A stretch of DNA of 32,000 nucleotides from Burkholderiaceae bacterium. Its GTDB lineage: Bacteria; Pseudomonadota; Gammaproteobacteria; Burkholderiales; Burkholderiaceae_C. Under the pieces are notes generated by a model. It was not told where the DNA came from. It ran no database searches and worked only from the letters and a program-made list of their open reading frames with translations. The stretch lies in NCBI GenBank assembly GCA_965234775.1, contig OZ248566.1; one strand, written 5' to 3'. Shown piece after piece: positions 6,733-28,906 of the stretch. Position 1 is the stretch's first letter. Every line of letters starts with the position of its first letter. A program made the position numbers and the translations under genes.

Positions 6733-6751
6733 AAATTGAAAAGGTAACCCC

Positions 6752-7144: not shown

Positions 7145-7182
7145 GATGTGTCCCGTTTTTTGAACTGCGATCATCAATCATC

Positions 7183-7506: not shown

Positions 7507-7507
7507 G

Positions 7508-8056: not shown

Positions 8057-8068
8057 TGCACCAAATTC

Positions 8069-10263: not shown

Positions 10264-10264
10264 A

Positions 10265-10954: not shown

Positions 10955-11061
10955 TCCACATCTCCCTGAGCACACGGATATCAAGCGCCTTAAATTTCGA
11001 CGGAGCGAATCGATTTTCAGGTCAAATTTATGTCAAAATGCCGCCTTGAAATTTGGATTTC

Positions 11062-11136
11062 GCGTGGTTAGCTCAGTGGTAGAGCATCGCCTTCACACGG
11101 CGGGGGTCGGGGGTTCGAAACCCTCACCACGCACCA
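11062..11136 (+). tRNA. tRNA-Val (anticodon CAC), CCA encoded
   Basis: Folded by hand. Acceptor stem GCGTGGT/ACCACGC, D arm GCTC-AGTGGTA-GAGC, anticodon stem TCGCC/GGCGG with loop TTCACAC, T arm GGGGG-TTCGAAA-CCCTC, discriminator A plus CCA. Confidence 0.9.
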
Positions 11137-11253
11137 AAAATTTCCCTTTATCTTCAACAACTTAAGCACTTTTATTGGCGCTTTACTTTAAGAAATTTGT
11201 AGTATACCGGTCCCATACTACATTTCATAGATTTTTCAATGTGTTTTCATAGA

Positions 11254-11428
11254 TTTCTCGATCAGAAATCTATCTAATTTTTATCTCGCGTGTGTGTGGT
11301 GAGCTGCCCTTTGCGTGCAAGCCCTACAAGCGTTGATCTCATGTGCCAGCTACTTTGCCCAGCCCTGGTGTGGAAAAGTGTGCTGTAGGGCTTTTTAAAC
11401 GCCCGCGTGCAGGGCTAGAAAGTTGTGA
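11254..11428 (+). repeat. copy A of a ~175-bp imperfect direct repeat (partner at 28733-28906)
   Basis: Blocks shared with copy B, in the same order and at the same spacing: TTTTCATAGATTTC; AGCCCTACAAGCG(T/C)TGATC; TGCCAGC 23 nt after the IR arm; GCTGTAGGGC; CTAGA(A/C)AGTTGT. The internal IR is GCCCTACA (11321-11328) / TGTAGGGC (11384-11391) with a 55-nt spacer. Confidence 0.8.
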
Positions 11429-11431
11429 GGC

Positions 11432-11635
11432 TCAAGCGGGCTTGCAGTCAGCGCACATGAACATGCTTTGATTGAGCACGCGTCTGAAGCTGCCCAGTGC
11501 ACGCGGCTTGTGCAATCCGCATTTGTAGCAACTCATGCTGGCGCCAGTACCAGAGGCTGCAAATGGACTGCCACCTTCTTTGGATTTGTACCTGAGGCCA
11601 TCGCCAGAAATTTTTGTGGTTTCGTCTTTGCTCAT
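11432..11635 (-). CDS. small zinc-ribbon protein (CxxC-N21-CxxC), function unknown
   Basis: 67-aa ORF directly downstream of, and co-oriented with, the integrase (36-bp gap). It has CYKCG...CADC, but no family was recognised. Coding status is supported only by position and the Cys pattern. Confidence 0.5.
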   Translation of the reverse strand: MSKDETTKISGDGLRYKSKEGGSPFAASGTGASMSCYKCGLHKPRALGSFRRVLNQSMFMCADCKPA

Positions 11636-11671
11636 GCAGGCATTCTATTGAGCAAGCCTAGATTGCGGCGA

Positions 11672-13018: not shown

Positions 13019-13127
13019 GGCTTTCACTCGCAATGTTCTACATAGTGTGTTTTCTGAGAAGCAGGGCAGTCAACCGAAAGCTGGCTGGACTGTGGCTTTT
13101 AGACGATCTGCACAATCGATCGAATGG

Positions 13128-13784
13128 TCAGGCAGTTGCTGTTTGCTCTGCAGGTTCATCTGCACTGCTCTGGGAGGTTTGACCTGTCCAATAGTGCTTG
13201 TCATGCCAATCACGGAGATCTGATAAGGTTTTATCGATCGCTTGTGTGCCATATCTTTCTGTCATTGCTTTTAAACAGTCAACATCAAAGTTTTCGATCA
13301 CAGTGTCTTGAATGCCACTTTCCAGGAGTTCTTCTTTGTGTTTTTCAACTTTTTCGGGCCATCTTTTGACTTCATCAAACAAGTGCCTGGCATGGTGATA
13401 GTTGTGCAATCGCTTGCTTAATTTTGTAAAGTCGTTGTTCTCTACGTAGAAAGATCCACTGCATATTTTTGAGTACTTCAAAATAAAAAAACTGTTGGGT
13501 TGAATTCTTTCTGCAGTGAAGTAAAAGTGTGAAATCGGAATCGTTGCCCAATAGCCAGGACCTTCCTCGCCAGTGTCTGGACTTAAACAATATTTCAATC
13601 TACCAAGAGAACGGATGTAATTTCTGTGATGACCGTGTGCTTTGTAGCAACTGAAATCCTCAGTACCCAGCAGACGAACGATCTCTTTGCGCTTGGGCAG
13701 CTCGCCTTCGTCCTTCACATGCCAAAGCAAGATTGAGCCTTTGGTAATTTTTTCGAAAAGATTTGACATGACATTCGCTTCCAT
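13128..13784 (-). CDS. hypothetical protein (AT-rich orphan)
   Basis: 218-aa ORF, or 213 aa if it starts at MSNLFEK (13769). It is markedly more AT-rich by eye than its neighbours. No motif was recognised. Confidence 0.55.
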   Translation of the reverse strand: MEANVMSNLFEKITKGSILLWHVKDEGELPKRKEIVRLLGTEDFSCYKAHGHHRNYIRSLGRLKYCLSPDTGEEGPGYWATIPISHFYFTAERIQPNSFFILKYSKICSGSFYVENNDFTKLSKRLHNYHHARHLFDEVKRWPEKVEKHKEELLESGIQDTVIENFDVDCLKAMTERYGTQAIDKTLSDLRDWHDKHYWTGQTSQSSADEPAEQTATA

Positions 13785-13789
13785 AAATT

Positions 13790-13811
13790 CCCTAAACCCG
13801 AAGGTTTAGGG
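13790..13811 (-). promoter_or_regulatory. intercistronic stem-loop (9-bp stem, UUCG loop on the mRNA strand) overlapping the RBS of ORF 13784
   Basis: The minus-strand RNA reads CCCUAAACC-UUCG-GGUUUAGGG, then AAUUU, then AUG (13784). It is preceded by a C5UC6 tract. Confidence 0.5.
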
Positions 13812-13830
13812 GGGAGGGGGATTGCTTGGT

Positions 13831-14865
13831 TTAAGCGGGTTGATTAATCGTCACGCCGCCAATGGTTTGGGTCTGGGGCGCATTGAGCATGGCCTCAGGT
13901 TGCACTGCACCGTTCACTGCAGGCATGCCACTGGGTTGATAGCCCTTGTCGCCAGGCTTCATGCCCCAGCCAGAGGTGATGCCCAGTTTTTCGCGCAAGA
14001 CGTCAAGCTTTTGTTGCATGGCTTCCAGGTCATCTGGCATGCTGGCCTCGGCCACCAGGTTCAAGATCTGCGACTCCATGGATTCGTTCAGCTTGAAGAA
14101 CCTGACCACGCGGCGCTCTTGGCCAATGGGGTTCACGCAAACCGCAAACTCAAAGCTGCCTTGCTTTTTGCCCTCAACCACGGTGTTGAGCACAAACTGG
14201 TCATCCACATGCACCACGGTTTGGCTTGACTTGGCATTGGCCAAAAGAATTTTGCGCAGCATCTGCGTCTTGGCTTCCTTGTGATCCTTGACGTTTTTGG
14301 CTGCTTCGGCCTCGTCCCTGGTGGCTGTGATCTTGCCAATGCCGCCACGGTCTTTGATGTAGTTGGGCAGCTCTTGGGCCGTGAGGTTTTCATCATGCGC
14401 CACCTGTAGTACTTTGGAGTACGAGTAGGCGGTCTGACGATCCGTTGGCAGGATGAAGCGCAGCACCGTGGTGATCCAAGGCGTGTTGGCCTGGGTCTTG
14501 ATCTCATGCTCTTCCTCCAAGCGCTCACGCATGCGCTGAAGGATGTGATCCCGCAGGGGTGACTCGTTGATCTGCAGGGCATAACTGTAGATGGCACCCA
14601 AGAGGGCATAAAGCTCCTTGGTACCCCTCACAACGTATGTTTCCACATACTGGTCGTTCATCTTGGACAGGTTCTGGGCCTGCCCCAAAACCATGTCCAC
14701 CTGAGCGTCGTTGGCGCTCTTGTCACTGGGTCGGCGGCTATCGGAACCGCCAAGGGCGCGGTTCATAAGTAGGCCAAAAGCAAACTCATCCACAGCTGGA
14801 ACCGCTGGGGCAGGGCTGGGTGGAACCCCATGAAAGGCAATGGTTTGGACGGACTCTTGATTCAT
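13831..14865 (-). CDS. hypothetical protein
   Basis: 344 aa from the ATG at 14865 (MNQESVQT), which has a strong AGGAG 6 nt upstream. The N-terminus is Pro/Ala-rich, followed by a helical-looking core. No family was recognised. Confidence 0.65.
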   Translation of the reverse strand: MNQESVQTIAFHGVPPSPAPAVPAVDEFAFGLLMNRALGGSDSRRPSDKSANDAQVDMVLGQAQNLSKMNDQYVETYVVRGTKELYALLGAIYSYALQINESPLRDHILQRMRERLEEEHEIKTQANTPWITTVLRFILPTDRQTAYSYSKVLQVAHDENLTAQELPNYIKDRGGIGKITATRDEAEAAKNVKDHKEAKTQMLRKILLANAKSSQTVVHVDDQFVLNTVVEGKKQGSFEFAVCVNPIGQERRVVRFFKLNESMESQILNLVAEASMPDDLEAMQQKLDVLREKLGITSGWGMKPGDKGYQPSGMPAVNGAVQPEAMLNAPQTQTIGGVTINQPA

Positions 14866-14979
14866 AAAAACTCCTGTTGAAAAATAACTTTCGGGACCGT
14901 CGGCCAGGATGGACACGACAAGCACAGGTTAGTTTTCTGGCGTCGGAGGTTTTTCACTTTTTCGAGGGGGTACGAAAAA

Positions 14980-15720
14980 ATGAAAGTTCAAAGGCTGGAA
15001 TGGTGTAGGCAAGAAAAGCTGGTTTCCTTGATCGCTGGTGGGCTACTGAGGTCTGAGGTGACCGCGCCCTTTATCCACGGCACCTACCTGGAGCTTTGGT
15101 GGCGATGCCTTAAGTGTTCTAAAGAATTCACCCAAAGCGGCCGTACCGGCATATTCACCTCTGCCGGCGCATACAAGACCTTCTGCATGTTTGGCTCAAT
15201 AGAAGACATGACGTTTCATGACTGGTGGCTGAGCAAGGGCCATGAGTTTTTTAGTCAAAGCATTACGACCTTGCAAGTCACGCTGTATGTGAAACGCAAG
15301 AACATCAATGCATTTGCAATTACCGTAGATGCATTTCAAGATGTATCAAGCCAGTTGGCCGGAAAAGAGTTTGGCTTTTGGCACGACCAGATCTGCCTGC
15401 TGAATGCAAAACAGGGGCTGCTGTCTGAGGCACCATTGTCCTGGCCAATTTTTCGCAGTCGAATTGGCTTGGAAGCGATCTCTCAGCTGTTGAGCATCAT
15501 GGAAACTCATGACCAAATCGTTCGCAATGCGCCAAAAACATGTCTATGGCAGATAGGCGAACAGCTAAAACTCAACCCTAAGGCCATGCCTAAACATGAT
15601 GACTTCCCTGCTGATGCGGCAGACAAGCACAAGGCCATGGGTCAGACTGTGAGCAACTACCTGAGAAAAGGGAATCGCCTTGTCAAAAATGCATGCAATG
15701 GCATATTCCCTAAATGCTGA
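14980..15720 (+). CDS. hypothetical protein
   Basis: 246-aa ORF with GAGGGGG 9 nt upstream of the ATG. It is divergent from 13831-14865 across a 114-bp intergenic region. No family was recognised. Confidence 0.55.
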   Translation: MKVQRLEWCRQEKLVSLIAGGLLRSEVTAPFIHGTYLELWWRCLKCSKEFTQSGRTGIFTSAGAYKTFCMFGSIEDMTFHDWWLSKGHEFFSQSITTLQVTLYVKRKNINAFAITVDAFQDVSSQLAGKEFGFWHDQICLLNAKQGLLSEAPLSWPIFRSRIGLEAISQLLSIMETHDQIVRNAPKTCLWQIGEQLKLNPKAMPKHDDFPADAADKHKAMGQTVSNYLRKGNRLVKNACNGIFPKC

Positions 15721-15851: not shown

Positions 15852-18800
15852 TTAATCTGCTCTTTCTGAGATCACCACCAACGTGCGTTGTCCGCCAAAG
15901 GTCAATGCCACTTGCAGTGGAAAAGCGCCATCCGGCACGGCGCTGGCATCAAACCGCAAGGTTTTGACATCAAATTTCAGCCATTCAGGAAGTGCAGAAC
16001 CACTCGGTAAGTTTGCGCGAATATCGGAACTTTCTGCGGCTGCGGTACGAACCGATTCAGGCAGATCAAAGCTAAATCCTGCGCCCACGGTAGACGTTCC
16101 CTTTGGCAAAGAAACCGCAAACATCATCGACAAACCGGTTGAACTGGGTGCATTGCGTTGCTCAACGCTGATGCCTGATGCCTGCGAGCTTGCAGCTGAG
16201 CTGTTGGCAGAACTGCCTGAGTCATTCGTCACCAAAGTTTGGGTTGTGGCACTCACCATCAACGGTTGAGGTATGTTGGCATTGGACAGACTTGTGCCCA
16301 TCACAGGCGGTGTTGGGTTATTGGCCAATAATTTAGAGGCGACAACTTGCGCCGCGGTGACATTGGGTGAGACAGAGACATCGCGTGTGATGTTGGTGCC
16401 CGTTTTGTTGACAACCCCAGTGAAGTTGTTGGTGCCGTCTAGGGTGATGCTGCCGCCAGCGGTGAGGTTGGTGGGGCCGGTGGCGACAGTGAGTGTGCTG
16501 CTGGTGCCCTGGGTGACGTTGCCGGTGGTGGCAGTCAGGTCCAAGGTGCTGGCGTTGACCACACCGTTCACAGCGAGGTTGGTGGCAGCAGTTGCGTTGA
16601 GGTTGCCAGCCGTGGTCACGGTGCCCAGTGTGAGCGCATTCGCATCGACGATGGTCACGTTGCTGCCATTCAGGCTAACGGCACCCACAAAGTCATTGCC
16701 CGCATTGCCCAAGTTGATTGCGGCGGGTTGTCCGCCCTGCGTGGCTGTGAAACTGCTGGTCGATTGCGCTGTGATCACGCTGCCGCTGGATTGGCTGATG
16801 GCGCCATCGGTGCTGGTCACGCTCAATGTGCCTGTGCTGGTCAGGTTGCCCAATTGCACGCCAGCCGTGGTGTCTGTGATGCTGGTGTTTCCACCCACAG
16901 AAACACTGCCCGAAGCGCCTTGGCTGAAGTTTTGGGTGACTGATAGGTCACCTCCAAGGGTCATGGCACCGCCAGTTTGCACCAACGAGGCTGCCGTCAT
17001 GGCGCCTGTGCCCGAAAAGCTGCCACCGCTTTGGTTGAAGCTGTCCGAGGTGGTTGAGCCTGTATTGGTCAGAGTGCCGCCACTTTGCGTGAGGCCGCTC
17101 AAAACCATGCCGCCCGTGCCCACATTCAAGGTGCCCGCGCTTTGCGACAAATTGCTGCCCGTGCCCGTCAACCCGTCAATGTTGACCGCACCGCTTTGCG
17201 CAGGAGCAACCACTGTGCTGCCAAAGCTGGCCGTCACGCCAGAGGGAATGACCACGTTGGCCACGTTGGACAAATCAGGCACCGCACCGCCCGCCCAGTT
17301 GGCGGGATCAAACCAATTGCCCGTTGTGCCGCCCACCCAAGTGACAGAGTTCAGGCGTGTGATGCTGCTTTGCGTGTTGCTGGCGTAAGTGATGGCGTAA
17401 TTGCCGCCGCTGTTGCCGTCAGCCACCACCGCTGCGCTTGGCGTCAGCGTTTTGCCGGTGCCCACATTCTTATTGTCAAAGTTAAGGCTGACGCCACTCA
17501 CCGTATCGCCTGCAACACCCAGTGCTGTGCTCAGTGCCGTCAAGTCTGCTGCGGTCACTGAGGAGGTGGTTTGCCCGTCGTAGACCTTGGTGCCCGTCGG
17601 TGCAGTCAGTGTCACGGCTTTGGGCGTGATGGTGCCTGAGCCACTGATGGACGCATTGGTGATGGTGTAGTTGCCAGCATCGTTGCCCGTCAATGCCAAA
17701 TTGCTGAGGGTGTAGGTGGTCGAACCTGCATTGCGCGAGGCAAATTGCCCATTTCCGCCAGCGCTGACTGCGTCGGTCAGGGCACCCGACGTCACCACGC
17801 CGGTCATGCCAATCGAGACCCCAGTCGCTGCGGTGGTGCCGTCATAAGGTTTGGTGGCGTTATTGACATTGGGGGTCAATGCTTTTGGTGTGACAGACAA
17901 GTCACCCACGACGGTCAAGCGACTGAAGTTGGGGTTGGCGCTGGGCGTGATGGCAAGCCCAGAGCCTTCCAACTGGTAAGCCCCTGCCTTTGTCTGTAAG
18001 GTCGTGCTGAGCGAAGCATTGACAGGGGTGAGATTGAATGTGGCCGATGTGCCTGCGCCGTCGTTCACGGACACGGCATTGCCGTTCACGTTCACAGTGC
18101 CTACGTTGACCGGTGCAGCAGGGTTGCCCCCCGCAGGCATGTACTGAGCGCTGCTCACGGTGTAGGTGGGCGCAGACCCGTAGGTGGCACTGGCGCTTTG
18201 CAAGCGAACCAAGAGTTGCTCAGCCGGCACGATGGTGTAACTGCCCTTTGCGTAACTGATTTGGTAATTTGGCGCAACAGCGCCAGAAGGTACCAGTGCA
18301 TTGGCATAGGTGCCTGCAGACTCGGTGCCACTGCTGGCCAACACACCGGTTGCAGCGCTGCCGTTGGTGATGTTCAAGGTGTTGGTGCGGTCTACGCTCA
18401 CCGTCGGTGTGCTGGTCAGAACGCCAGCGGTCGACGCCGTTTCGCCCACCACAAAGGGTGAATAACTGAATGTGAAGCCAGGGTCTGCGGTGGTCACAAA
18501 CTTGGCATCGTTGTTGGCGTAAACCGTTAAAGAAGCTGGGGTGATTTGTTTTGTAGCCGCTGCAGGCTGCGTGAGCGAGTAATTGCCTGACTGCGCACCC
18601 GACAAGCTCAGACCCGTAAAAGTCACTGTGCTGGCCGTGGCGACGTCTTTGGTGTTGAAGTTGCCAAGGGCTGTGCCAGTCAGAGCAACGGTGTCGCCCA
18701 AGTAGGCCTTGCCGTCACTGCTGGTGCCCGTGCCTGTGGCAATGGCGGTTTGCAAGACCGCCGTGCCGCTCACAACGGCTGTGGTGGTGCCGTCGTAAAC

Positions 18801-21800
18801 CTTGTCAGCGGTGGTCACGCCCGACACCGTCAATGCCTTGGCCGTGATGCGTGGCGTTGTGGCGTTGGCGTGCTGGGTCAGGCTGTAGTTGTCTGCGCCT
18901 GTGCCAGTCAGACCCAGACCTGAGAAAGCCACCGTGTTGGCTGTGATCACGTCTTTGGTGTTGAAGTTGCCAAGGGCTGTGCCAGTCAGGCTCACGGAAT
19001 CAACCGCATAAGCCTTGCCGTCGCTGCTGGTGCCCGCGCCTGCCGCAATGGCAGTTTGCAGCACAGCGGTGCCGTTGACGGCGGCTGTGGTGGTGGCGTC
19101 GTACACCTTGTTGGCCGATGACAGCCCGCTGACGGTCAGCGCCTTGGCCGTGATGCGCGCCGTGTTATCGGAAGGCTGCGTGAGAGCGTAATTGCCTGAT
19201 TGCGCACCCGTCAAACTCAGGCCTGTGAAAGCCACCGTGTTGGCCGTGAGCACGTCTTTGGTGTTGAAGTTGCCCACAGCTGTGCCCGTCAAGCTCACCG
19301 TGTCACCCGTGAAGGGTTTGCCATCACTGCTGGTGCCTGTTGCCACAGCCGCTTGCAATACTGCGGTGCCGCTCACCACGGCCGTGGTGGTGCCGTTGTA
19401 AACCTTGTTGGCGCTTGAGAGCCCAGAAGCCGTCAGCGCCTTGCGGTTGACCGTCAGCGTATTGGCGGAGACGCTGTAGCCCAATCCAGTCAAGTTGCTG
19501 GTGATGGTGTAAGGCGTGGCATTGGCATTGAGACGGCCCGAGGAATAGGCCGCGCTGGTGATGGTTTGAGAGAACGTATCGCCATTCAACAACCCAGTGG
19601 GCGTGGTGGACAACGCAAAACTGTCGCCATAAGTGATGACTTGGTTGAGGTTGTCCAGGGTGATGGCTGTGGGCTGTTCGCGATAAATGCCATACACACC
19701 CGAGCTAAGGGCGGTCCAGCTGCCAGTGGCAAAGTTGGTCGATTCATCGGCGTTGTACCTAAAGCGCCCAGTGCCTGCCGTCAGGCCGCTCAAGCTGGTC
19801 AAGCCCGTACTGCCTGTCACGCTGCCAGTCATCAGGCTGATCCTTCCTCCAGTACCGACGCTCAGCGTGGGCGTTCCAGAGATCAGCAAGTTGCCCCCGG
19901 AGGCAGTTCCTGGGGCGGTGCTCTTACCCGCGTTGAGCAAGATGGCACTGCTGGTCGTGCTGGTGGTGTTGATGTTGTCAGCCAAGGTGAGGTCGCCCGT
20001 CAAGGTAGAGACACTGACGGCGCCGGTGGCTCCAATGCCAGAGGTGGCACCCACTGTGCCGATGGTGAGCGCATTGCTGTCAATGTAGGTTAGGCTGCCC
20101 ACGCCGCTGGCCGCCAAGGTGCCAACGTTGTTGCTGGCGTGGTCAAGCGTGACGTTTCCGCCTAAGAGGAACAGGTCACTGGCGACAACGAAGCCGCTGG
20201 TGCCATCGGTGACAGCCTTGCCGGTGCCGCCTTTGAGGGTGATTTGGCTGTTGGTGGCCGTGATCGGCGCACTGATCGTGATGGCCCCACCGTTAATGGA
20301 GATCGGACCTGTTGCGGTGATGGCTGTGCCCACGGTCACATCGGCGGTGTTGGCGCTCTTGCCCAGGCGCACGCTAGAGGGGGAGCCTGAAATCGATGGA
20401 AATGTCTGCGCCGCTGAGAAGGTGGACCCTGCTGATTCAAAAACGATGTTGCCACCCGTGTTGAGTTTCAGAGCATTGGGGTTGAAAGTTTTGTTGGCCT
20501 GTATCGTGATGTCAGACGTGCTGGTGGTCACAGATGATCCACTCACAGCCCCGATATTCAAAGTTTCACTTCTTAGAGAGGTGATTGAGTTCTGCGTACC
20601 TAACGAGCTTCCATCCGGTGTCAGGTCAACGATACTGATGCGCCCAGACTGCGACAGCAGACTGGCCCCGGCCCAGTTTTGCAGACCATCTGAATTGGCG
20701 GTTGTTCTACGGTACAGGTTCAGGGTGAGTGCACCGGAGTCGGTGACGATGGTGTTACCGCCACTGAAATAAATACCCATTGCGTTACCGGTGGTGGTCA
20801 GATTGGATGCATTTCCTGTCACGGTGATGTTGCCGCTGCCACTGGTCCGGACAATGGAGTTGTCGCCAAAAAGAACGGCGACGTCATCTTGAGTTCCGCT
20901 AGCCCCCCCAGCTGCAAAAGAAGAACTTAGATTTATGTTGCCGCCAGAGGCATTGAAGCTGGCGTTGTTGCCAATTAGCAGAGCATAGTCTGTGCTGCTC
21001 GTTTGGGGTGAATTTGTGACGCTGTAAGTGATCGGTGACCCTTGGGTGGTCACGCTGAAAGACCCCTGTACGATGGCTGTGCCGGAAAGGCTGATACCCG
21101 TGCTGTTGGTCGCGGTGCTGGATAAGTTGTTGTTCACCGAAATGATGCGGCCAGCGTTCAGAGTAATCCCACCACCAATGCTCAAGGCATAGTAAACATT
21201 GATGTCTCTGTGCGCGGTCAGCGTCAGAGAATTAGCGGCCGCTTGGGTGACTGCGGCATTCACTCTGATGTCGCCATTGCCTCCCGGTGACGCATCCGTG
21301 GCAATGGCAACGCTGGTGGTGAGTAAGTTGCCGGCCAGGGTTGTCGCGCCAATGCCACTCGTGGTTTGCCCGCCTGAACCGGCGCTGATGGTGAAGTCAA
21401 TCGGGTCCAGCAGCCATTGGCCAGCGTTGCCTTTTGGCGCCAACGTGTTCACCCCGGCTGTTTCAGCCACGCGCAGTGTGTGCCCTGAGGTTTCGACACG
21501 CCCACCTTGGCCGCTGTTGGGGCCGCCTTGTGCATGAATTTGCCCTGCAAAATCGGTTTCACTGCCTTCTGCTTTGACATCACTCCACAGCACCACCATG
21601 CCGCCATCGCCATTGTGCGTGGCGCTGGCATCGATGGTGGCACCGCTGGCCATGTTCACTGTGGTGGCCTGTTGGTTAGGCTGCTCTGTGACTTGCAGCA
21701 GCGGGTCAGCGCTGCCTTGCCAGTTGCCCCCCACCAGCACCGTGCCGCCGCCGGCAGGCCCCGTGGCGCTGATGCGGCTGCTGCTTTGCAGCTCAATGCT

Positions 21801-22799
21801 GTCGCCTTGCAGGCTGATGTTGCCGCCTTTGCCAAAGGCCTCAGTGCTGCTGGCATCCAAGGTGCCCGCATTTTGCACACGCGCGCTGCCCGACAACACA
21901 ATGCGCCCGCCTTGTTGTTGAAGGCCAGTGGCTTCCACCGTGCCACTGTTTTTCACCACGCCGCCGACCAGGCGGTCCATCGATTGCGCGCTGATGATGA
22001 CCAAGCCGCCAGGGGCTTGTACGGCCAAGCGGTTGTCCACCAGGGCTTGAATTTGGCTGGGCGTGACGCGCAGGCTCGTCAGGCGGTTGTTGCTGTCGAA
22101 CTTCAAGTCAAAGGCTTCGCCAGCGGCCATGGCCACGGTGCCCATGTGCGCGATGACGGCACCTTGGTTGCGCACCTCAGGTGCGAGCAGTGCGATGTAG
22201 CCGCCCAATGTGGCCTTGAGCTCGCCTTCGTTGACCACGCTGGCGGTGCTGTCGTTGCGCTCAAACCTGTTTTTGCCCGCCATGAAGTCGGCATTGCCAA
22301 TGCCATGTGTGGTCGCGATCAAACCGCCCACATCGACGCGCGCATCTTTGCCAAAAAACACACCCGACGGGTTGGTGAGGATGACTTGGCCGTTGGCTGA
22401 AATTTGGCCAAAGATTTGGCTGGGGTCGTTGCCGAGCACACGGTTGAGCGTGACGCTGCTGGCACTGGGCTGTACAAACTGCACCTTGGCGTCTTTGCCC
22501 ACATTGAAGCTTTGCCAATTGATGGCCGCGCGGTCGGTGCTTTGCTGGATGAGCATATTCGCACCCGTTTGCCCAATGCTTGCCTTGCCCGCGCCGACTT
22601 GCCCGCCCGTGGGCAAGGTGCTGGGTGGTGGTGCCGTCTGGGCGTAGGCGCTTTGCGCCAAAAGACCCCCCAGAATTGCAGCAATGGCTGAGACCACCTT
22701 CGCACCCGAGCTGGGCTTGCCTTTGGCGCTGACGGTTTCGGCAGCGGCGACATAGGTTTGCTTACTGGCGTTCCAGATGCTGTGGAATGACTTGTTCAT
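15852..22799 (-). CDS. two-partner-secretion exoprotein TpsA (filamentous hemagglutinin-like adhesin)
   Basis: 2315 aa. It has an extended signal peptide (MNKSFHSIWNASKQTYVAAAE...) and a TPS/hemagglutination-activity domain (AAINWQSFNVGKDAKVQF...LNRV...ILTNPSGVFFG). A long Gly/Thr/Ser/Ala-rich beta-helix-like region follows, then five KVYDGTT-type repeat units. The C-terminus is Ig-like (LPEWLKFDVKTLRFDASAVPDGAFPLQV). Confidence 0.92.
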   Translation of the reverse strand: MNKSFHSIWNASKQTYVAAAETVSAKGKPSSGAKVVSAIAAILGGLLAQSAYAQTAPPPSTLPTGGQVGAGKASIGQTGANMLIQQSTDRAAINWQSFNVGKDAKVQFVQPSASSVTLNRVLGNDPSQIFGQISANGQVILTNPSGVFFGKDARVDVGGLIATTHGIGNADFMAGKNRFERNDSTASVVNEGELKATLGGYIALLAPEVRNQGAVIAHMGTVAMAAGEAFDLKFDSNNRLTSLRVTPSQIQALVDNRLAVQAPGGLVIISAQSMDRLVGGVVKNSGTVEATGLQQQGGRIVLSGSARVQNAGTLDASSTEAFGKGGNISLQGDSIELQSSSRISATGPAGGGTVLVGGNWQGSADPLLQVTEQPNQQATTVNMASGATIDASATHNGDGGMVVLWSDVKAEGSETDFAGQIHAQGGPNSGQGGRVETSGHTLRVAETAGVNTLAPKGNAGQWLLDPIDFTISAGSGGQTTSGIGATTLAGNLLTTSVAIATDASPGGNGDIRVNAAVTQAAANSLTLTAHRDINVYYALSIGGGITLNAGRIISVNNNLSSTATNSTGISLSGTAIVQGSFSVTTQGSPITYSVTNSPQTSSTDYALLIGNNASFNASGGNINLSSSFAAGGASGTQDDVAVLFGDNSIVRTSGSGNITVTGNASNLTTTGNAMGIYFSGGNTIVTDSGALTLNLYRRTTANSDGLQNWAGASLLSQSGRISIVDLTPDGSSLGTQNSITSLRSETLNIGAVSGSSVTTSTSDITIQANKTFNPNALKLNTGGNIVFESAGSTFSAAQTFPSISGSPSSVRLGKSANTADVTVGTAITATGPISINGGAITISAPITATNSQITLKGGTGKAVTDGTSGFVVASDLFLLGGNVTLDHASNNVGTLAASGVGSLTYIDSNALTIGTVGATSGIGATGAVSVSTLTGDLTLADNINTTSTTSSAILLNAGKSTAPGTASGGNLLISGTPTLSVGTGGRISLMTGSVTGSTGLTSLSGLTAGTGRFRYNADESTNFATGSWTALSSGVYGIYREQPTAITLDNLNQVITYGDSFALSTTPTGLLNGDTFSQTITSAAYSSGRLNANATPYTITSNLTGLGYSVSANTLTVNRKALTASGLSSANKVYNGTTTAVVSGTAVLQAAVATGTSSDGKPFTGDTVSLTGTAVGNFNTKDVLTANTVAFTGLSLTGAQSGNYALTQPSDNTARITAKALTVSGLSSANKVYDATTTAAVNGTAVLQTAIAAGAGTSSDGKAYAVDSVSLTGTALGNFNTKDVITANTVAFSGLGLTGTGADNYSLTQHANATTPRITAKALTVSGVTTADKVYDGTTTAVVSGTAVLQTAIATGTGTSSDGKAYLGDTVALTGTALGNFNTKDVATASTVTFTGLSLSGAQSGNYSLTQPAAATKQITPASLTVYANNDAKFVTTADPGFTFSYSPFVVGETASTAGVLTSTPTVSVDRTNTLNITNGSAATGVLASSGTESAGTYANALVPSGAVAPNYQISYAKGSYTIVPAEQLLVRLQSASATYGSAPTYTVSSAQYMPAGGNPAAPVNVGTVNVNGNAVSVNDGAGTSATFNLTPVNASLSTTLQTKAGAYQLEGSGLAITPSANPNFSRLTVVGDLSVTPKALTPNVNNATKPYDGTTAATGVSIGMTGVVTSGALTDAVSAGGNGQFASRNAGSTTYTLSNLALTGNDAGNYTITNASISGSGTITPKAVTLTAPTGTKVYDGQTTSSVTAADLTALSTALGVAGDTVSGVSLNFDNKNVGTGKTLTPSAAVVADGNSGGNYAITYASNTQSSITRLNSVTWVGGTTGNWFDPANWAGGAVPDLSNVANVVIPSGVTASFGSTVVAPAQSGAVNIDGLTGTGSNLSQSAGTLNVGTGGMVLSGLTQSGGTLTNTGSTTSDSFNQSGGSFSGTGAMTAASLVQTGGAMTLGGDLSVTQNFSQGASGSVSVGGNTSITDTTAGVQLGNLTSTGTLSVTSTDGAISQSSGSVITAQSTSSFTATQGGQPAAINLGNAGNDFVGAVSLNGSNVTIVDANALTLGTVTTAGNLNATAATNLAVNGVVNASTLDLTATTGNVTQGTSSTLTVATGPTNLTAGGSITLDGTNNFTGVVNKTGTNITRDVSVSPNVTAAQVVASKLLANNPTPPVMGTSLSNANIPQPLMVSATTQTLVTNDSGSSANSSAASSQASGISVEQRNAPSSTGLSMMFAVSLPKGTSTVGAGFSFDLPESVRTAAAESSDIRANLPSGSALPEWLKFDVKTLRFDASAVPDGAFPLQVALTFGGQRTLVVISERAD
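18545..19445 (-). repeat. three tandem 303-306-bp (101-102 codon) in-frame repeats inside tpsA
   Basis: GTCTTTGGTGTTGAAGTTGCC recurs at 18645, 18951 and 19254. The first two copies share a ~39-nt perfect stretch. The protein units run KALT(V/A)SG...KVY(D/N)(G/A)TTTA.V.GTAVLQ...GNFNTKDV...F(T/S)GL.L(T/S)G...NY(S/A)LTQ. Confidence 0.9.
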
Positions 22800-22862
22800 G
22801 GTGCGGGGCTCTGTGGGTGCTTCAGATGAAAAAAGCGTGTTGGGTCTTGGATCGTGGGTGGA

Positions 22863-24554
22863 TCAAAAAGACAAGCCTGCGGTGAACCAGATGCGGTTGA
22901 TCAGAAGCGTGCCGTCGCCATCGGTACCGGTGGCTGTGGGCTTGGGGTTGCTGCCTTCGCGCTGAGACCACGTGAGCTTGGCGTTGAGACCCAGGGGGCC
23001 TTGCCAAGCCGCGCTCAGGCCATACCCGCGCAAACTCGATGGCGTGGATGCGTCAGCGGCTGTGGTTGGCAGCGCGGTCACCCAAGCTTGGTCTATAAAA
23101 CCGCTCAGCAACCACGCAGCATGCAAGCGCCAGCGCCATTCGCCCGTCAGCAGTTGGCCGCGCTCACCACCCAACTCGCTGCTGGGGTAGGCGCGCACGA
23201 TGGTGGCACCGCCGATGTAAAACTTCTCAGACGAGTCCAGCAACTGCGTGGCGTATTGGCCTTGGAGGTTGAGGAGCAGAGAGTGGTCCTTGGTCAATGA
23301 CTGTTGTCGGCTCAGGGCGTAGTTGAATTTGATGTAGTCGCGGCCCAGGGTGTCGATCTGGGTGTGGGCCTTGACACGGGCGAGTTGACCTTGCACCACT
23401 TGCAATGAGGCACTGTTGGCACCGCCGCCACCCAGGTCGTCAAAAACGTTGCCAGAAAAACCCAACTTCAGGCTGTTGGTCTCGTAATCGGCGTAGCTGT
23501 TGGTGGCGCTGGTTTTGTTGATGCTGTCGTTGTAGAAACGTTTGTTATCCAGACCCCCAGAAAAATACAAATTGCGCATGCGCTGCCGAACGACTGGAAA
23601 GCTCCAGTCCAAGCCTATGCTGTCGGAGCTGCCTTGGACGTTCAAGCTCACCAAGCTGCTGGGGCCGTCGATGACTTTGTAGTTCATCGTGCTGCCGTTG
23701 AACCCAAAGCGCAAGCCGTTGTAGCCCACAGGGACGGTCAGACCCAATCGGACGTAGGCACTGCCTTGGGTGCGCAATGCGGTCAAGTTGATCAATTCGC
23801 CGTGGTCGCCAGGGCTGTTGATGTTCAGGTTGAGCATGACGCGGTTGCTGCCGGTTGAGCGCGCACCGGTGTTGTCCAGGGTCACTTCGCCGTAGACAAA
23901 AGCCTCGTCGCTGTTTTGAATCGCCAAGCCCGTTTCGCCTTCGGCCTGGCCTGGAACCAAGGTGCCTGCGACGCTGATGCCGGGCAGGTCGTCGGCCAAC
24001 AGCAGGGCACGGTCGAGGGCCAGTGTGTTCAAAGGCTCGCCCGTTTTTTGTTGCTCCTCGAAAAAGGCCTCAATGTCCGAGGAAAGAACGCGCTTGGAAG
24101 GTTCGCCTTCCAGGCGCAGGCCAGCAAACCGTGCTTCCACCACTTGCAGGGTGATGGTGCCTTCGCTGATGTCTTGCTCTGGCAAATAAACCCGCGCCAA
24201 CCATCCGGACTCACGGTAGGCAGCGGCGACCGCATCGGCGGCGCGCTGTATCCCGGCAAAGTCGAGTTGCAGGCCCACAAACGCCTGCAGGACGGTTGCC
24301 AGTTGTTCGCTGCTGAGCAAGTTGTTGCTTGCAAAGCGGAAGGATTTGACCATGACGGTCATGCCCGATGTGGGCTGGATTTGGGGGGGCAGCGGTGCGC
24401 TTTGGGGGCGCGCTGCGGGCAATGGCTGTGGGCGTTGTTGCTCGATTTGCTGACGCAAGCTACCGGCGTCTGGGGGCGTTTGGGCCCATCCCGAAAAGCT
24501 CAGCCCCAATGCGACAGGCAAAGACCAATAAGTGGGAAGAGGTCTATTGGGCAT
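22863..24554 (-). CDS. TpsB outer-membrane transporter (ShlB/FhaC/HecB family, POTRA plus beta-barrel)
   Basis: 563 aa from the ATG at 24554, with a signal peptide ending SGWAQ. A POTRA-like region (VKSFRF.SN.LLS.EQL) is followed by a C-terminal barrel ending in an aromatic residue (AGLSF). It lies immediately upstream of tpsA (63-bp gap). Confidence 0.9.
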   Translation of the reverse strand: MPNRPLPTYWSLPVALGLSFSGWAQTPPDAGSLRQQIEQQRPQPLPAARPQSAPLPPQIQPTSGMTVMVKSFRFASNNLLSSEQLATVLQAFVGLQLDFAGIQRAADAVAAAYRESGWLARVYLPEQDISEGTITLQVVEARFAGLRLEGEPSKRVLSSDIEAFFEEQQKTGEPLNTLALDRALLLADDLPGISVAGTLVPGQAEGETGLAIQNSDEAFVYGEVTLDNTGARSTGSNRVMLNLNINSPGDHGELINLTALRTQGSAYVRLGLTVPVGYNGLRFGFNGSTMNYKVIDGPSSLVSLNVQGSSDSIGLDWSFPVVRQRMRNLYFSGGLDNKRFYNDSINKTSATNSYADYETNSLKLGFSGNVFDDLGGGGANSASLQVVQGQLARVKAHTQIDTLGRDYIKFNYALSRQQSLTKDHSLLLNLQGQYATQLLDSSEKFYIGGATIVRAYPSSELGGERGQLLTGEWRWRLHAAWLLSGFIDQAWVTALPTTAADASTPSSLRGYGLSAAWQGPLGLNAKLTWSQREGSNPKPTATGTDGDGTLLINRIWFTAGLSF

Positions 24555-24608
24555 TTTGTGGGTCAAGAAAAAACATCGCGCGAGGTTAAAACGCGAAAAT
24601 CTTTCTTT

Positions 24609-24625
24609 GCCTACAAAAACCTACA
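24609..24625 (-). promoter_or_regulatory. tandem 10-bp-phased direct repeat GCCTACA-AAAA-CCTACA upstream of tpsB (candidate response-regulator box)
   Basis: On the gene strand it reads TGTAGG-TTTT-TGTAGGC, 55 nt upstream of the tpsB ATG. The same bipartite pattern occurs at 27355-27371. An AT-rich hexamer (TTTAAC) lies 18 nt downstream. Confidence 0.55.
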
Positions 24626-24664
24626 AAATTGACATGTCTTAATGGGTGAGGTCAGCAGGTACTG

Positions 24665-25381
24665 CTAAACCACTTGCACTGAGATGCACAGCTGGTAGCC
24701 GTGCCCCCGGATGGCTTCGATGCAGTTGCTGCCCGCTCCGGCGTCTACCAGTTTCTTGCGCAGGCGCACCATGCGCACTTCCAGGCTGGCTTTGGGGTAA
24801 GTTTCCAGGTTCAGGCCGAGGGTTTCGGCGATTTGCCAGTAGGCGATGCGCTGTCCTGGGGCACGTGAAAAGGCGGTCAAGATGGAAGTTTCAGAAGCGC
24901 TCAGGACAATTTCAGACTGACCAGGCTTGGCAATACGCATGTGCTGCTGATGCAGGGTAAAGCTTTGCTGGTTCTGGTTTTGCAGCAGGGTGTCAACCCT
25001 TTGTCGACGCCGACCAAGGGCGCCAACCGCGGCACAGAGTTCGGGCACTTCGATGGGTTTGCTGAGGTACATGTCGGCACCTCGCGCGTAGCTTTCGAGC
25101 TTGTCGCTCAGGCCCGAGCGGGCTGTTACCACGATCAAACCCGCGAGCGGGTAGGCGGTGCGTACGCGCTCAGTTAGGCTCAGGCCATCTTCGCCGGGCA
25201 GGTTCAGGTCGATCAAAAAAATGTCAACGTGTTGGCCTTGGGCCACGTCTTCGAGCTCTTCGGCACAAGACAGTGCAACGACTTGATGGCCTGATTCCTC
25301 CAGCGCTTGCTGGAGCATGTCGCGCAAAATGTCGTGATCTTCAACAATCACCAGGTTCAGGCGTGGTGCAGGGGTATCCAC
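24665..25381 (-). CDS. OmpR/PhoB-family response regulator (receiver plus winged-helix)
   Basis: 238 aa. The receiver has LVIVEDHD and DIFLIDLNLPGEDG. The C-terminal winged helix has MVRLRKKL...IEAIRGHGYQL. The start is GTG at 25381, overlapping the kinase 3' end by 25 nt. Confidence 0.9.
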   Translation of the reverse strand: MDTPAPRLNLVIVEDHDILRDMLQQALEESGHQVVALSCAEELEDVAQGQHVDIFLIDLNLPGEDGLSLTERVRTAYPLAGLIVVTARSGLSDKLESYARGADMYLSKPIEVPELCAAVGALGRRRQRVDTLLQNQNQQSFTLHQQHMRIAKPGQSEIVLSASETSILTAFSRAPGQRIAYWQIAETLGLNLETYPKASLEVRMVRLRKKLVDAGAGSNCIEAIRGHGYQLCISVQVV

Positions 25382-27282
25382 AGAACAAACTCCACATGTT
25401 GATAGCTGGGCGCGTAAACCAAAGTGCCCCCCAGGCTTTGCGCCAGCTCTCGCGATAGGAAAAGCCCGAGGCCTGTGCCCGATTCGCGTTGTGCGGCATT
25501 GGCGCGGTAATACTTGTTGAACAGTTGCTCAGTGTCAGGCCAGCCAGCCAGCCCCGGTGTGTTGCTCATGCGCAGTTCCAAGCCCGGCAGATCATCCTGG
25601 GTTTTGGGCTTCAAGGTGACGGTAACGGGGGTGAGGGGGTCGCTGTAATGGGCCGCATTGATAAGCAAATTGGTCAGAACGATTTGCAGCAGTTGTGGGT
25701 CTGTGTGTGGCCGAGGCAAGTTTAGGTCTGCGGCGAGATCGAAACGCCCCTTAAGCTTTGAGATGGCCTTTGCTTGTTGACGTAAGAGCCCCACCACATT
25801 GACTGGTTGGCGGTGTTGCTTCAGTCGAAGTTCTCCGATTTGGTCAGACTGCACGCAGCGCTCGATGATGGCTTTCATGTCTTGCACAGCATGGCTGGCA
25901 TGTGCCAGGTTTTCTTCCCGGTTTGTCTTGTTACCCAGCGCTAACGACACGATAGACAGCGGTGTCTTGAGCTCGTGCATCAGCATGTGTAAAAACTGAG
26001 ATTGCTCTTGACGCTGTCGCTGCTCAAGGGCCAGGACTTGCTTGGTCCTGTCTAGGTTCATGGCCATCATGGTTTTCTCGTTTTGTAGCTCATGCGATTT
26101 TTGGGCCATGTTGTATACACGCAATTGCATCAGCAAGAACATCACCAGTCCATCGAGCAAGACATGCATCAGGTTACCGGCCAGCAAGAAGCGGTTGATT
26201 GGCAGCCACCCCTGCCGGATGGCGGCGGGGATGATGTTGATGGTCGCGAAAATGGAAAAATAAGCCAACAATAACAAGTAGGACAAGCTTTGTTTTTGCC
26301 GGGAGGGTTGAGCGAACAACAAGGTAAACCACATCAAGCCCAAGCAAACAATCACCATGACATTGGTGCTTAACAACATGAATCGGGTCATGTCAAAGAA
26401 CTGGAGAAAGGGCAGTACGCAGACCAGCGCCACAGCGGCAAGTGTTGCGCGCAGAAAGCCGCGCTGCAGGCCATAGTCTTCAAACAAGACGGTATAGAAC
26501 CATACGCCGCTAGCAAGAGTCCAAATCCGGATAAAGTATCCTAGGCAGAGGCGGAAGTTCAGGGGAATGAGATCGCTCAGCAAAAGCCCACTGAAACCCA
26601 CCATACTGAAAGCCCACAGCGTGGCCATCCATTGTTTAAAGGCGTATACCCCCATCACTCGCTCTCGACTCATCCACCATTGCATCGTCGACCACAGGGC
26701 AAAGACGATGGACACAGACTGCAGAAAGACCACGAGTCTTTCCATGTTGTAATTTTTGACTTGTGCTTTGCGCAAAGGCCAGACATCGGTCATGACCAGC
26801 CGGGCACTTGGGGTGTCGATGCGCAAGTACAGGTTGCGCTCTTCGGGTAAGGGTGGAATCTGAAATGAAAAATTGATCGAATCCAAGGCATCCTCACTGC
26901 GCGGTCTAGCATAACCACCGTGCTGGACCCGGGTTGAGGCTGAGTCATACAAAGTCAGTTGATCGAGGAAAAACGGTTCAACACCGACGATCCATGCCTC
27001 TTTTTCTTCGGGTAAGGCTGCACGCAAGGTGTAGCGGATCCAGATGGGTTCTTCCCCAAATCCCCAATTCATCTTGCCATCAAAAGATGTCCAGCTTTCG
27101 ACGGCTTGGACCTCTTGAAGCGTGGCACGACCGCTGGAGTCCATGTGCCAGGCCATGGATTGGACGAGCGGAGGTGCTTTGCTTCCGTCTGGGGATGGTT
27201 GGCAAGCTGCCAGCCCGAATGTGAGCAGGAGCGTCAGGAACAATCCAGACCAACGGAACCAGCGGGGAGCATTGACGAGCAT
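25357..27282 (-). CDS. sensor histidine kinase with 7TMR-DISM-type N-terminal sensor and seven-TM region
   Basis: 641 aa from the ATG at 27282 (TTG at 27288 is possible). It has a lipobox-like signal (LTFGLAAC) and a periplasmic domain, followed by about 7 hydrophobic helices. The H-box is MHELKTPLS and the ATPase N/G boxes are LLINAAHYS and GTGLGL. Confidence 0.85.
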   Translation of the reverse strand: MLVNAPRWFRWSGLFLTLLLTFGLAACQPSPDGSKAPPLVQSMAWHMDSSGRATLQEVQAVESWTSFDGKMNWGFGEEPIWIRYTLRAALPEEKEAWIVGVEPFFLDQLTLYDSASTRVQHGGYARPRSEDALDSINFSFQIPPLPEERNLYLRIDTPSARLVMTDVWPLRKAQVKNYNMERLVVFLQSVSIVFALWSTMQWWMSRERVMGVYAFKQWMATLWAFSMVGFSGLLLSDLIPLNFRLCLGYFIRIWTLASGVWFYTVLFEDYGLQRGFLRATLAAVALVCVLPFLQFFDMTRFMLLSTNVMVIVCLGLMWFTLLFAQPSRQKQSLSYLLLLAYFSIFATINIIPAAIRQGWLPINRFLLAGNLMHVLLDGLVMFLLMQLRVYNMAQKSHELQNEKTMMAMNLDRTKQVLALEQRQRQEQSQFLHMLMHELKTPLSIVSLALGNKTNREENLAHASHAVQDMKAIIERCVQSDQIGELRLKQHRQPVNVVGLLRQQAKAISKLKGRFDLAADLNLPRPHTDPQLLQIVLTNLLINAAHYSDPLTPVTVTLKPKTQDDLPGLELRMSNTPGLAGWPDTEQLFNKYYRANAAQRESGTGLGLFLSRELAQSLGGTLVYAPSYQHVEFVLWIPLHHA

Positions 27283-27354: not shown

Positions 27355-27371
27355 GCCTACATTTCCCTACA
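27355..27371 (-). promoter_or_regulatory. tandem 10-bp-phased direct repeat GCCTACA-TTTC-CCTACA upstream of the kinase gene (candidate autoregulatory box)
   Basis: On the gene strand it reads TGTAGG-GAAA-TGTAGGC, 67-73 nt upstream of the kinase start. An AT-rich hexamer (TAAAAA) lies 18 nt downstream. Confidence 0.55.
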
Positions 27372-27500: not shown

Positions 27501-27676
27501 CCAAAAAGCAAAGGGAATGCTTGGATTACATCGTTGTGCATGAACTGGTGCATTTGCTGGAGCCGGCACACAACGAGCATTTCATCAAACTGATGGATCA
27601 ACATATGCCCAAGTGGAAGTCACATAGGCAATTGTTGAACAGCTTGCCGGTCAGGCATGAAAACTGGGAGTACTAA
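27501..27676 (+). pseudogene. 5'-truncated remnant of a DUF45/YgjP-type zinc metallopeptidase (gene class usually found beside type I R-M hsdR)
   Basis: The frame translates to DDLAKKQRECLDYIVVHELVHLLEPAHNEHFIKLMDQHMPKWKSHRQLLNSLPVRHENWEY*. This includes the HExxH motif and the conserved C-terminal part of the family. About 170 N-terminal codons and any start codon are missing, and an in-frame stop lies at 27417. Confidence 0.65.
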
Positions 27677-27961: not shown

Positions 27962-28534
27962 TCAAACCAGCTCGACAGCTGCCTTCAATTGACTGGGGCT
28001 GCTGTAAAGATAGGCAGCGGTGGTGCTGATTGAGCGGTGCCCAGCAAGCGTTTTTAAAATATGTATCGCAGTGCCTTTGTTGGCCAAGTTTGTTAGGAAC
28101 GTTCTGCGCCCACTGTGACTGCTGGCACCCTCAACTCCAGCGCCTTCGTACATGAGTGCAAAGGCCTGAGCCAAGCTGTTTGCGCCGAATCCTGACTTGA
28201 TGCTTTTTTGGCTGGCAAAGAATGGGTAGTTGCGATCCACGCACCGAGCCTGTGCTGCATACGCTGCCAATTCCTCGCGCAGTCGGATGTTGACGAAAAC
28301 AGTCCTTGGGTGTCGGCCCTTGGTCATGTCGGGCAGCAAGCGGATTTCTTCCTTGACTGTGCCGTCCTGCTTGATCACATCGCTCCAGCGCAGGCAAGCA
28401 ACTTCACCGATTCTTAAACCTGCCAGGTGAGTGAGCAGCATCATTGCTCTGTTGCGTGGCGCGAAGCGGCGTGTGCGGATGTGGTCCAGTACCCGTGTCA
28501 GTTCTTCTTTGGTGAGTGTTTTTGCCTGTGCCAT
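27962..28534 (-). CDS. short tyrosine recombinase (catalytic domain only, 190 aa)
   Basis: Strong RBS (AAAGGAGAActtgaATG). Catalytic residues can be traced: LAGLRIGEV (Arg I), SSHSGRRT (HxxR), LAGHRSISTT (His II) and AAYLY (Tyr). There is no N-terminal core-binding or arm-binding domain. Confidence 0.85.
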   Translation of the reverse strand: MAQAKTLTKEELTRVLDHIRTRRFAPRNRAMMLLTHLAGLRIGEVACLRWSDVIKQDGTVKEEIRLLPDMTKGRHPRTVFVNIRLREELAAYAAQARCVDRNYPFFASQKSIKSGFGANSLAQAFALMYEGAGVEGASSHSGRRTFLTNLANKGTAIHILKTLAGHRSISTTAAYLYSSPSQLKAAVELV

Positions 28535-28732: not shown

Positions 28733-28906
28733 TTTTCATAGATTTCCGCATCGCTTTCGCACTCTTTTGGTGCCCAAATCACCACTGCATCAAATCAGCC
28801 CTACAAGCGCTGATCGGCGCTGCCAGCATCCCAAGTATTCGGTCAGGTAGATCGATGCGCTGTAGGGCGTTTTAGCGCTGGGGTTTTGTGACTAGACAGT
28901 TGTTGA
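28733..28906 (+). repeat. copy B of the ~175-bp imperfect direct repeat (partner at 11254-11428)
   Basis: See copy A. The internal IR is GCCCTACA (28798-28805) / TGTAGGGC (28861-28868), and the spacer is again exactly 55 nt. It is flanked by the 10-mer AGATTTCCGC at 28740-28749 and 28931-28940. Confidence 0.8.

Follow-up and report, generated by a model that had tools for sequence, protein, structure and literature searches.

Four consecutive, co-oriented genes on the minus strand of a 32-kb stretch from a Burkholderiaceae bacterium (contig OZ248566.1; the whole stretch of 32,000 nucleotides is called the window below) encode a sensor kinase, a response regulator and the two proteins of a two-partner secretion system, the transporter TpsB and the giant exoprotein TpsA. 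This cassette is one of a large and so far undescribed family of two-component modules linked to adhesins, which share a conserved candidate operator and promoter architecture: a direct repeat of TGTAGG that lies before the kinase gene and again before tpsB. That an adhesin locus may have a two-component system of its own is known as a concept; new are the class of the sensor, the layout of the operon, the repeated box and the apparent exchange of the adhesin type. We consider it probable that the pair serves as a dedicated, self-regulating two-component switch for a secreted EtpA-like adhesin.

The four-gene cassette and its relatives

The open reading frames (ORFs) of the cassette are placed in the window as follows:

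15852-22799, minus strand: TpsA, 2315 aa
22863-24566, minus strand: TpsB, 567 aa
24665-25381, minus strand: regulator, 238 aa
25357-27288, minus strand: sensor kinase, 643 aa from a TTG start

The genes are read in the order kinase, regulator, tpsB, tpsA. The kinase and regulator genes overlap by 25 nt, and gaps of 98 bp and 63 bp separate the regulator gene from tpsB and tpsB from tpsA, respectively. An initial annotation, made from the letters of the window, had given the same order and junction lengths, and the coordinates agree with it; its upstream end, 27282, corresponds to an ATG two codons inside the TTG-initiated kinase ORF. The start of tpsB is ambiguous (TTG at 24566 or ATG at 24554), so the gap before it measures either 98 or 110 bp. 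In contigs that encode an identical regulator (L017-L025), the public gene calls are shorter, with a kinase of 599 aa (from residue 45) and a TpsB of 499 aa (from residue 69), which would strip the signal peptides from both proteins. Since the long N-termini are conserved in translated alignments, the long forms of both were kept, and the short public starts probably represent a systematic start-site error for this kinase/TpsB family. The 25-nt overlap of the kinase and regulator genes is also kept in two orthologous loci, L001 and L005.

In the Pfam and NCBIfam scans, the kinase has a periplasmic 7TMR-DISMED2 domain (PF07696; residues 44-170, 55.4 bits against a cut-off of 22), which stands between an N-terminal signal ending in a lipobox-like LAAC and a hydrophobic region with six clear, probably seven, spans (residues 185-386). 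The match to the seven-helix model 7TMR-DISM_7TM (PF07695) is weak (17.5 bits, cut-off 29); many kinase homologues have a precomputed match to this model, and the lipobox Cys is retained in the closer kinase clade only. In the catalytic part, HATPase_c is above the cut-off and HisKA is slightly under it (22.8 versus 26.9 bits), the H-box reads MHELKTPL and the core resembles those of solved histidine kinases. Neither scan reports a HAMP or receiver domain in this protein. The architecture initially assigned to the sensor (a lipobox-like signal, a large periplasmic domain and seven membrane helices, with neither HAMP nor receiver domains) is thus borne out in its signal, its periplasmic domain and the lack of HAMP and receiver domains, with seven membrane helices as probable.

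The regulator, with Response_reg and Trans_reg_C both above cut-off, is of the OmpR/PhoB type; the phospho-acceptor region of its receiver domain is FLIDLNLPGEDG. The pair has the features of a classical two-component system of this class, namely the H-box, the ATPase domain, the receiver Asp, the winged helix and adjoining genes. Across the orthologous loci, regulator identity is 67-95% and kinase identity is 35-90%, and an alignment of 10 regulator sequences shows no change in RLRKKL, the core of the winged-helix segment EVRxVRLRKKL. Kinase identity falls to 21-25% in the sensor part, against 53-60% in the catalytic core. This fast evolution of the sensor part suggests lineage-specific cues, for which calcium (as for LadS) and polysaccharides may offer leads.

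Both partners of two-partner secretion (type Vb) are recognizable in the products of the other two genes. TpsB has a signal peptide, a POTRA_2 domain (56.7 bits) and a ShlB barrel (69.7 bits) in Pfam, and TpsA, encoded next to it, has an ESPR signal peptide (46.8 bits), a TPS domain (PF05860, 142.5 bits; TIGR01901, 79 bits), MBG_2, five YDG stretches and DUF5649. The N-terminal 450 residues of TpsA are nearest to the adhesin EtpA of enterotoxigenic Escherichia coli (E = 9e-76), followed by HMW1 (E = 6e-36) and HxuA. Because of the similarity to EtpA, the YDG/MBG repeats and the lack of any detected toxin or pretoxin domain, TpsA may be read as an adhesin or aggregation factor. A by-eye reading of its C-terminus as cadherin-like was dropped, since the Pfam scan gave it no support.

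The YDG-repeat-coding part of tpsA contains three tandem copies of 303-306 nt (18551-19443), which are 73-81% identical and could alter the length of the gene through recombination.

The linkage of the pair to tpsB and tpsA is not confined to this genome. The order kinase-regulator-tpsB-sapC-tpsA, with a SapC-family gene inserted, is found in L001-L004 (kinase identity 90%) and in L005-L007 (58%), the latter from a Comamonadaceae metagenome-assembled genome, in a mutL-miaA context. A genome scan with the kinase as query gave nine true relatives, and the order kinase-regulator-tpsB-tpsA recurs at 37-38% kinase identity in Hylemonella (L009), an uncultured betaproteobacterium (L011) and Polaromonas (L013). 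Other adhesin types stand beside the pair elsewhere. In two Aquabacterium loci the pair is followed by an ESPR/PATR protein of 2221-2222 aa, which in the one that was scanned (L008) is followed by a YadA-anchor protein; in Rhodocyclus purpureus the pair is followed by a 212-aa gene and then by a YadA-anchor protein; and in one Burkholderiaceae locus the pair lies beside a convergent operon for type I secretion that includes an FG-GAP/RTX giant.

In a metagenome scan with the regulator alignment, 539 stretches encoded a relative, and the counts below are taken from 80 of these loci, that is, from among the matches listed. The kinase gene adjoins the regulator gene in all 69 testable loci, and a same-strand tpsB follows within 5 kb downstream in 43 of the 63 testable ones. 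This linkage holds down to 44% regulator identity: it is found in 6/9 loci at 67% identity or more and in 37/54 loci of a sister clade with 44-52% identity. The other neighbours include classical autotransporters (L058, L080), an ESPR/PATR protein (L030) and a cadherin-like/He_PIG/TIG protein (L048). Adjacency of the pair and tpsBA, which the initial annotation had left to a neighbourhood comparison, therefore extends to Comamonadaceae, Hylemonella, Polaromonas, uncultured betaproteobacteria and the metagenome loci, and the arrangement is common, not rare, in freshwater Burkholderiales.

The SapC-family gene (PF07277) lies between tpsB and tpsA in many of the orthologous cassettes (L001, 5786-6682; L005, 14535-15305; L009, 14998-15969); it is not present in the tpsB-tpsA gap of the window (22800-22862) or in L011, L013 and L032. 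The literature search found no paper connecting SapC with TpsB or two-partner secretion, and the gene may encode an accessory or modifying factor for the exoprotein.

The sister clade has a peculiarity between the regulator gene and tpsB, namely an extra match to the C-terminal winged-helix part of the regulator only (L051, 11651-12010; also L057, L060, L065, L072, L083, L085, L090, L095 and L098). In L051 this match is an ORF of 119 aa, which is without a receiver domain and overlaps the tpsB start, and two small ORFs of 106 and 123 aa (10727-11411, minus strand) between it and the regulator gene look, by eye, like a toxin-antitoxin pair.

Direct repeats and promoter geometry

The candidate regulatory elements of the cassette are the following:

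27356-27371, minus strand: box 1, direct repeat TGTAGGGAAATGTAGG (TGTAGG-GAAA-TGTAGG), starting 83 nt upstream of the kinase TTG
24610-24625, minus strand: box 2, direct repeat TGTAGGTTTTTGTAGG (TGTAGG-TTTT-TGTAGG), in the regulator-tpsB gap
24583-24588, minus strand: -10-like hexamer TAACCT (TAnnnT), starting 22 nt after box 2

With up to one mismatch allowed, TGTAGG-N4-TGTAGG has only these two matches in the 32 kb, both on the coding strand, and none in 100 shuffles. The exact motif stands at equivalent places in 20 of 26 loci, and when one or two mismatches are allowed, a box before the kinase gene and another after the regulator gene are found in nearly all orthologous loci; the position and strand of the boxes are conserved there, while the flanking sequence is not. 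In 90 non-redundant loci (1.05 Mb) we counted 57 box matches, versus 3 in a reversed-sequence control. Two narrow intergenic windows in which the boxes were expected hold 44 of the 57, and several of the remaining matches lie just upstream of a more distant tpsB. A motif-blind tally of hexamers with a 10/11-bp period in the 44-52% sister clade ranked TGTAGG first before the kinase gene and joint first before tpsB. Tandem direct repeats with a period of about 10 bp at target promoters are a feature of the OmpR/PhoB class, and the candidate GTAGG-N5-GTAGG has this form. TGTAGG-N4-TGTAGG is thus a candidate binding site of the regulator at two promoters, and the initial proposal that the exoprotein genes carry a dedicated switch gains cis-regulatory evidence from conserved boxes before both the kinase gene and tpsB.

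The spacing downstream of the second box is fixed: TAnnnT starts 21-22 nt after the post-regulator box in 16/16 non-redundant orthologous loci, in which the next gene is tpsB, the gene for an ESPR protein or a gene preceding a YadA-anchor gene. The box also precedes the ESPR gene in Aquabacterium and in L030, as well as the gene pair ending with the YadA-anchor gene in Rhodocyclus. The promoter-proximal half-site of box 2 lies at about -39 to -34, and no -35 hexamer is conserved. PhoB-type activator-dependent promoters have the same geometry, with the pho box in place of the -35 element. A simple promoter scan missed the box promoters, which is expected of activator-dependent promoters that lack a -35 element. 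As no terminator-like site was found in the regulator-tpsB gap, read-through from the upstream promoter may add to tpsBA expression.

Direct control by the box of type I secretion or classical autotransporter neighbours was considered and is unsupported. The type I secretion loci (L012, L036, L037) have the kinase-proximal box only, with none near the secretion genes, and no box was found in the two classical autotransporter loci (L058, L080), in either case within the stretches of these loci that were scanned.

Two related loci have deviating repeats. In Polaromonas (L013) both boxes (9733-9748 and about 12640) consist of GTAAG instead of GTAGG half-sites, and the regulator has EVRIARLRKKL instead of EVRIVRLRKKL (Val to Ala), which is a single hint of possible protein-DNA co-variation. 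In L014, three TGTTGG repeats at 10-bp spacing (4271-4296) lie between the genes of a distant pair (kinase identity 29%, regulator identity 39%), and they may represent a different operator for a related regulator.

Proposed control of the exoprotein and alternative explanations

The reading that we consider probable, a dedicated and self-regulating switch, starts from the observed gene content, conserved synteny, conserved boxes and promoter geometry; the signal, the DNA binding, the sign of regulation and the adhesive function are proposed as follows. A periplasmic or envelope cue would be sensed via the DISMED2 domain and the probable seven-helix membrane module of the kinase. Judging from the protein families, the kinase would autophosphorylate on the H-box His and hand the phosphate to the OmpR-type regulator, whose overlapping gene would be translationally coupled to its own. 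The phosphorylated regulator would bind, as a tandem dimer, the direct repeat (T/C)GTAGG-N4-(T/C/G)GTAGG. Binding at box 1, before the kinase gene, would provide positive autoregulation, and at box 2, with a half-site in the place of the -35 element, the regulator would recruit RNA polymerase in a PhoB-like manner and switch on tpsB-tpsA. TpsB would then export the EtpA-like TpsA with its YDG/MBG repeats as an adhesin or aggregation factor.

Several points weigh against this scheme. About a third of the related pairs, among the matches listed, have no tpsB following, and in a few metagenome loci the pair is followed by TonB receptors or a solute-binding protein; therefore, the pair is not strictly tied to adhesins. 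The binding of the regulator to the box is deduced from geometry and conservation, a box that overlaps the -35 position could equally repress, and the -10 element after the kinase-proximal box is poorly conserved. The box scan of this genome covers one window, so that a wider regulon elsewhere is possible. The adhesin role of TpsA is suggested by its similarity to EtpA and HMW1 and by repeat domains without a known function.

The opposite sign of control, in which the regulator bound to the GTAGG repeats would repress tpsBA and itself by occluding the -35 region until a signal relieves it, appears rather unlikely to us. An overlap with the -35 position is also typical of a classic repressor site, but the lack of a conserved -35 hexamer near the -10 element is characteristic of activator-dependent promoters, such as those with a pho box, as established for PhoB, and a box before the pair's own operon is the usual layout of positive autoregulation in the OmpR/PhoB-type family. 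It might also be asked whether the genes are mere neighbours, so that the pair regulates targets elsewhere or only itself, and tpsBA is expressed by read-through or under other regulators. This would agree with those orthologous pairs that lie beside unrelated genes, or beside convergent operons for type I secretion without a box nearby, as well as with the restriction of the box scan to one window. Nevertheless, the second box, which in all 16 non-redundant loci stands after the regulator gene and before its neighbour at a fixed spacing to the -10-like element, together with the same-strand linkage to tpsB at regulator identities as low as 44%, makes such an absence of dedicated control improbable.

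Many of the large TpsA proteins encoded on mobile islands are CdiA toxins, which raises the question of whether TpsBA serves for contact-dependent inhibition or toxin delivery and the two-component system controls competition. We regard this as very improbable: the Pfam scan detected no pretoxin, VENN, toxin or DUF637 domain in TpsA, its C-terminal 250 residues match no family there even at E <= 1, tpsA is followed by a convergent ORF and hence has no co-oriented immunity gene after it, the nearest relatives of the N-terminus are the EtpA and HMW1 adhesins, and the repeats are of the YDG/MBG rather than the FHA type.

A dedicated switch for a secreted adhesin has several known counterparts. 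BvgAS-fhaB-fhaC of Bordetella, named initially as the closest analogy with a different sensor type and gene order, is one of the three nearest in function, with BfmSR-csu and the trimeric-autotransporter cluster of Burkholderia cenocepacia as the others. It is also a two-component system beside a two-partner adhesin, which activates the adhesin promoter directly and autoregulates. BvgS has periplasmic Venus-flytrap, PAS, receiver and Hpt domains, BvgA is of the NarL/FixJ type, bvgAS and fhaB are transcribed divergently, and Bvg regulates virulence globally. In contrast, the system described here consists of a plain 7TMR-DISMED2 kinase and an OmpR-type regulator within four co-oriented genes, and the Pfam and NCBIfam scans detected no Venus-flytrap, PAS, receiver (in the kinase), Hpt or NarL-type regulator domain of the BvgAS kind in the pair.

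The kinase itself resembles LadS and RetS of Pseudomonas aeruginosa in the signal peptide, the DISMED2 domain and the probable seven-helix module fused to a kinase core, and some sources label its homologues "LadS". However, the two Pseudomonas kinases are of the hybrid or unorthodox type, have receiver domains, feed into Gac/Rsm and have no cognate adjacent regulator, whereas the present kinase is classical and has a cognate OmpR-type partner and a local target. On the side of the exoprotein, the nearest systems are EtpBAC of enterotoxigenic E. coli and HMW1ABC of Haemophilus, with the N-terminal match of TpsA, the tpsB-then-tpsA order as in etpBA and the location of both on mobile DNA. A glycosyltransferase (EtpC, HMW1C) is part of both systems, and neither has a neighbouring two-component system, while the present cassette lacks a glycosyltransferase and its relatives have a SapC-family gene instead.

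Adhesin loci with two-component systems of their own are known from other secretion pathways. In Burkholderia thailandensis, the adjacent BfmSR pair activates one promoter that drives the adhesin genes csuFABCDE and the pair itself (PMC12124856). This system, like BfmRS-csu in Acinetobacter, shares with the cassette an adhesin operon that has its own neighbouring two-component system, and differs in that the adhesin is a chaperone-usher pilus, the pair lies downstream of the pilus genes and the sensor is of another type. In Burkholderia cenocepacia, kinases and regulators are clustered with large type V adhesins in BCAM0218-BCAM0228, near a genomic island, and dedicated control was proposed by the authors (PMC3404963, PMC3417366). 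Orthologues of the present pair also occur beside YadA-anchor proteins; the differences are that the B. cenocepacia adhesins are of type Vc and that the cluster comprises several monocistronic units with no defined binding site. Of the initial statement that the cassette could not be assigned to any described system, one part stands: a full-text literature search found no paper in which 7TMR-DISM/DISMED2 sensors are joined in this manner to two-partner secretion or to type V adhesins. The other part does not, as an adhesin locus with its own two-component system was already known.

To our knowledge, it is mainly in Bordetella, and otherwise in few pathogens, that the regulation of two-partner adhesins is well understood. 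The cassette offers a compact, self-contained system with a sensor, a regulator, a defined candidate DNA site and a target operon, which recurs in many Comamonadaceae and other Burkholderiales that are abundant in fresh water. It makes testable which cue drives giant-adhesin production by planktonic freshwater bacteria and how one regulator family is re-wired to different secretion pathways; the conserved box would serve as a simple regulon predictor in any genome with the pair. Going further, we tentatively suggest, at somewhat short of an even chance, that the pair and the GTAGG box form a portable "when to stick" front end for the giant adhesins of freshwater and soil Burkholderiales. By recombination it would have come to lie before at least three type V classes (two-partner, classical autotransporter, ESPR/trimeric), and it also lies beside type I RTX adhesins, with a nearly constant regulator (67-80% identity) and recognition helix and a quickly diversifying sensor (21-25% identity). 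If true, this would amount to a general regulatory front end that can be exchanged between giant adhesins and has not so far been described.

The genomic island around the cassette

The cassette lies within an island, of which the following features were located in the window:

11062-11136, plus strand: tRNA-Val(CAC), about 580 bp before the island start
11672-13033, minus strand: divergent integrase-like ORF at the island's left end, 453 aa; matches to three integrase-domain models, all sub-threshold
27521-27676, plus strand: remnant of a YgjP-like (HExxH) metallopeptidase gene, 51 codons, covering only profile positions 166-206 of 207 (the last 41)
27962-28534, minus strand: tyrosine recombinase, 190 aa, catalytic domain only, within the island just upstream of the cassette

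The left 11 kb of the window belong to the core genome (polyhydroxybutyrate depolymerase, aminotransferase, uvrB, iscRSU-hscBA, an RNase T-like exonuclease and tRNA-Val). The names in the HscA cluster point to Comamonadaceae, and megablast searches of the cassette and the left flank against E. coli genomes gave no match, so that E. coli is excluded as the source. Two relatives, reached via members of the HscA cluster, were used for comparison. L109 (97% identical) matches positions 1-11719, ending 48 nt inside the 3' end of the integrase-like ORF, and then runs into a LysR gene; L108 (89% identical) matches up to 11409. Since the homology with L109 stops at 11719, everything to the right of about 11720 is an insertion, which is at least 20 kb long and has its right end past the end of the window. 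It contains the integrase-like ORF, three ORFs without a family, the cassette, the 190-aa tyrosine recombinase, DUF6876, a zeta-toxin-like P-loop protein and DUF6641. The guanine-cytosine content of the cassette genes is 0.53-0.59, whereas the core and the remainder of the island have 0.48-0.52. The placement of the cassette in a horizontally acquired island, as initially proposed, is therefore supported by its absence from close relatives and its atypical composition, and a tRNA gene nearby and a recombinase gene are further features of a genomic island.

DNA homology with L001, the closest cassette elsewhere, starts at 27418, 47 nt before box 1, and the YgjP-like remnant is truncated at its cassette-facing end, which marks a rearrangement at the upstream edge of the latter. 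Because of this start of homology and this truncation, the cassette (11.6 kb) has the appearance of a unit that was inserted into an already existing island. No direct or inverted repeats of 10 nt or more were found at its two edges. Orthologous cassettes occupy other chromosomal contexts; a tblastn search of the regulator against the PLSDB plasmids gave only a 40% match, in Gemmobacter, so that the cassette is on no plasmid known there.

The three ORFs between the integrase-like gene and tpsA (13128-15720; 218, 364 and 246 aa) have no Pfam match even at E <= 1, and the 246-aa ORF is the one convergent with tpsA. Two partly similar stretches 17.5 kb apart (11223-11400 and 28734-28880), with conserved blocks within about 150 nt, lie in the core after tRNA-Val and in the island after the 190-aa integrase. 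The TGTAGG that occurs within these stretches may be a coincidence. Both contain the inverted pair AGCCCTACA...TGTAGGGCT, and they could be att-related or represent a small repeated hairpin element.

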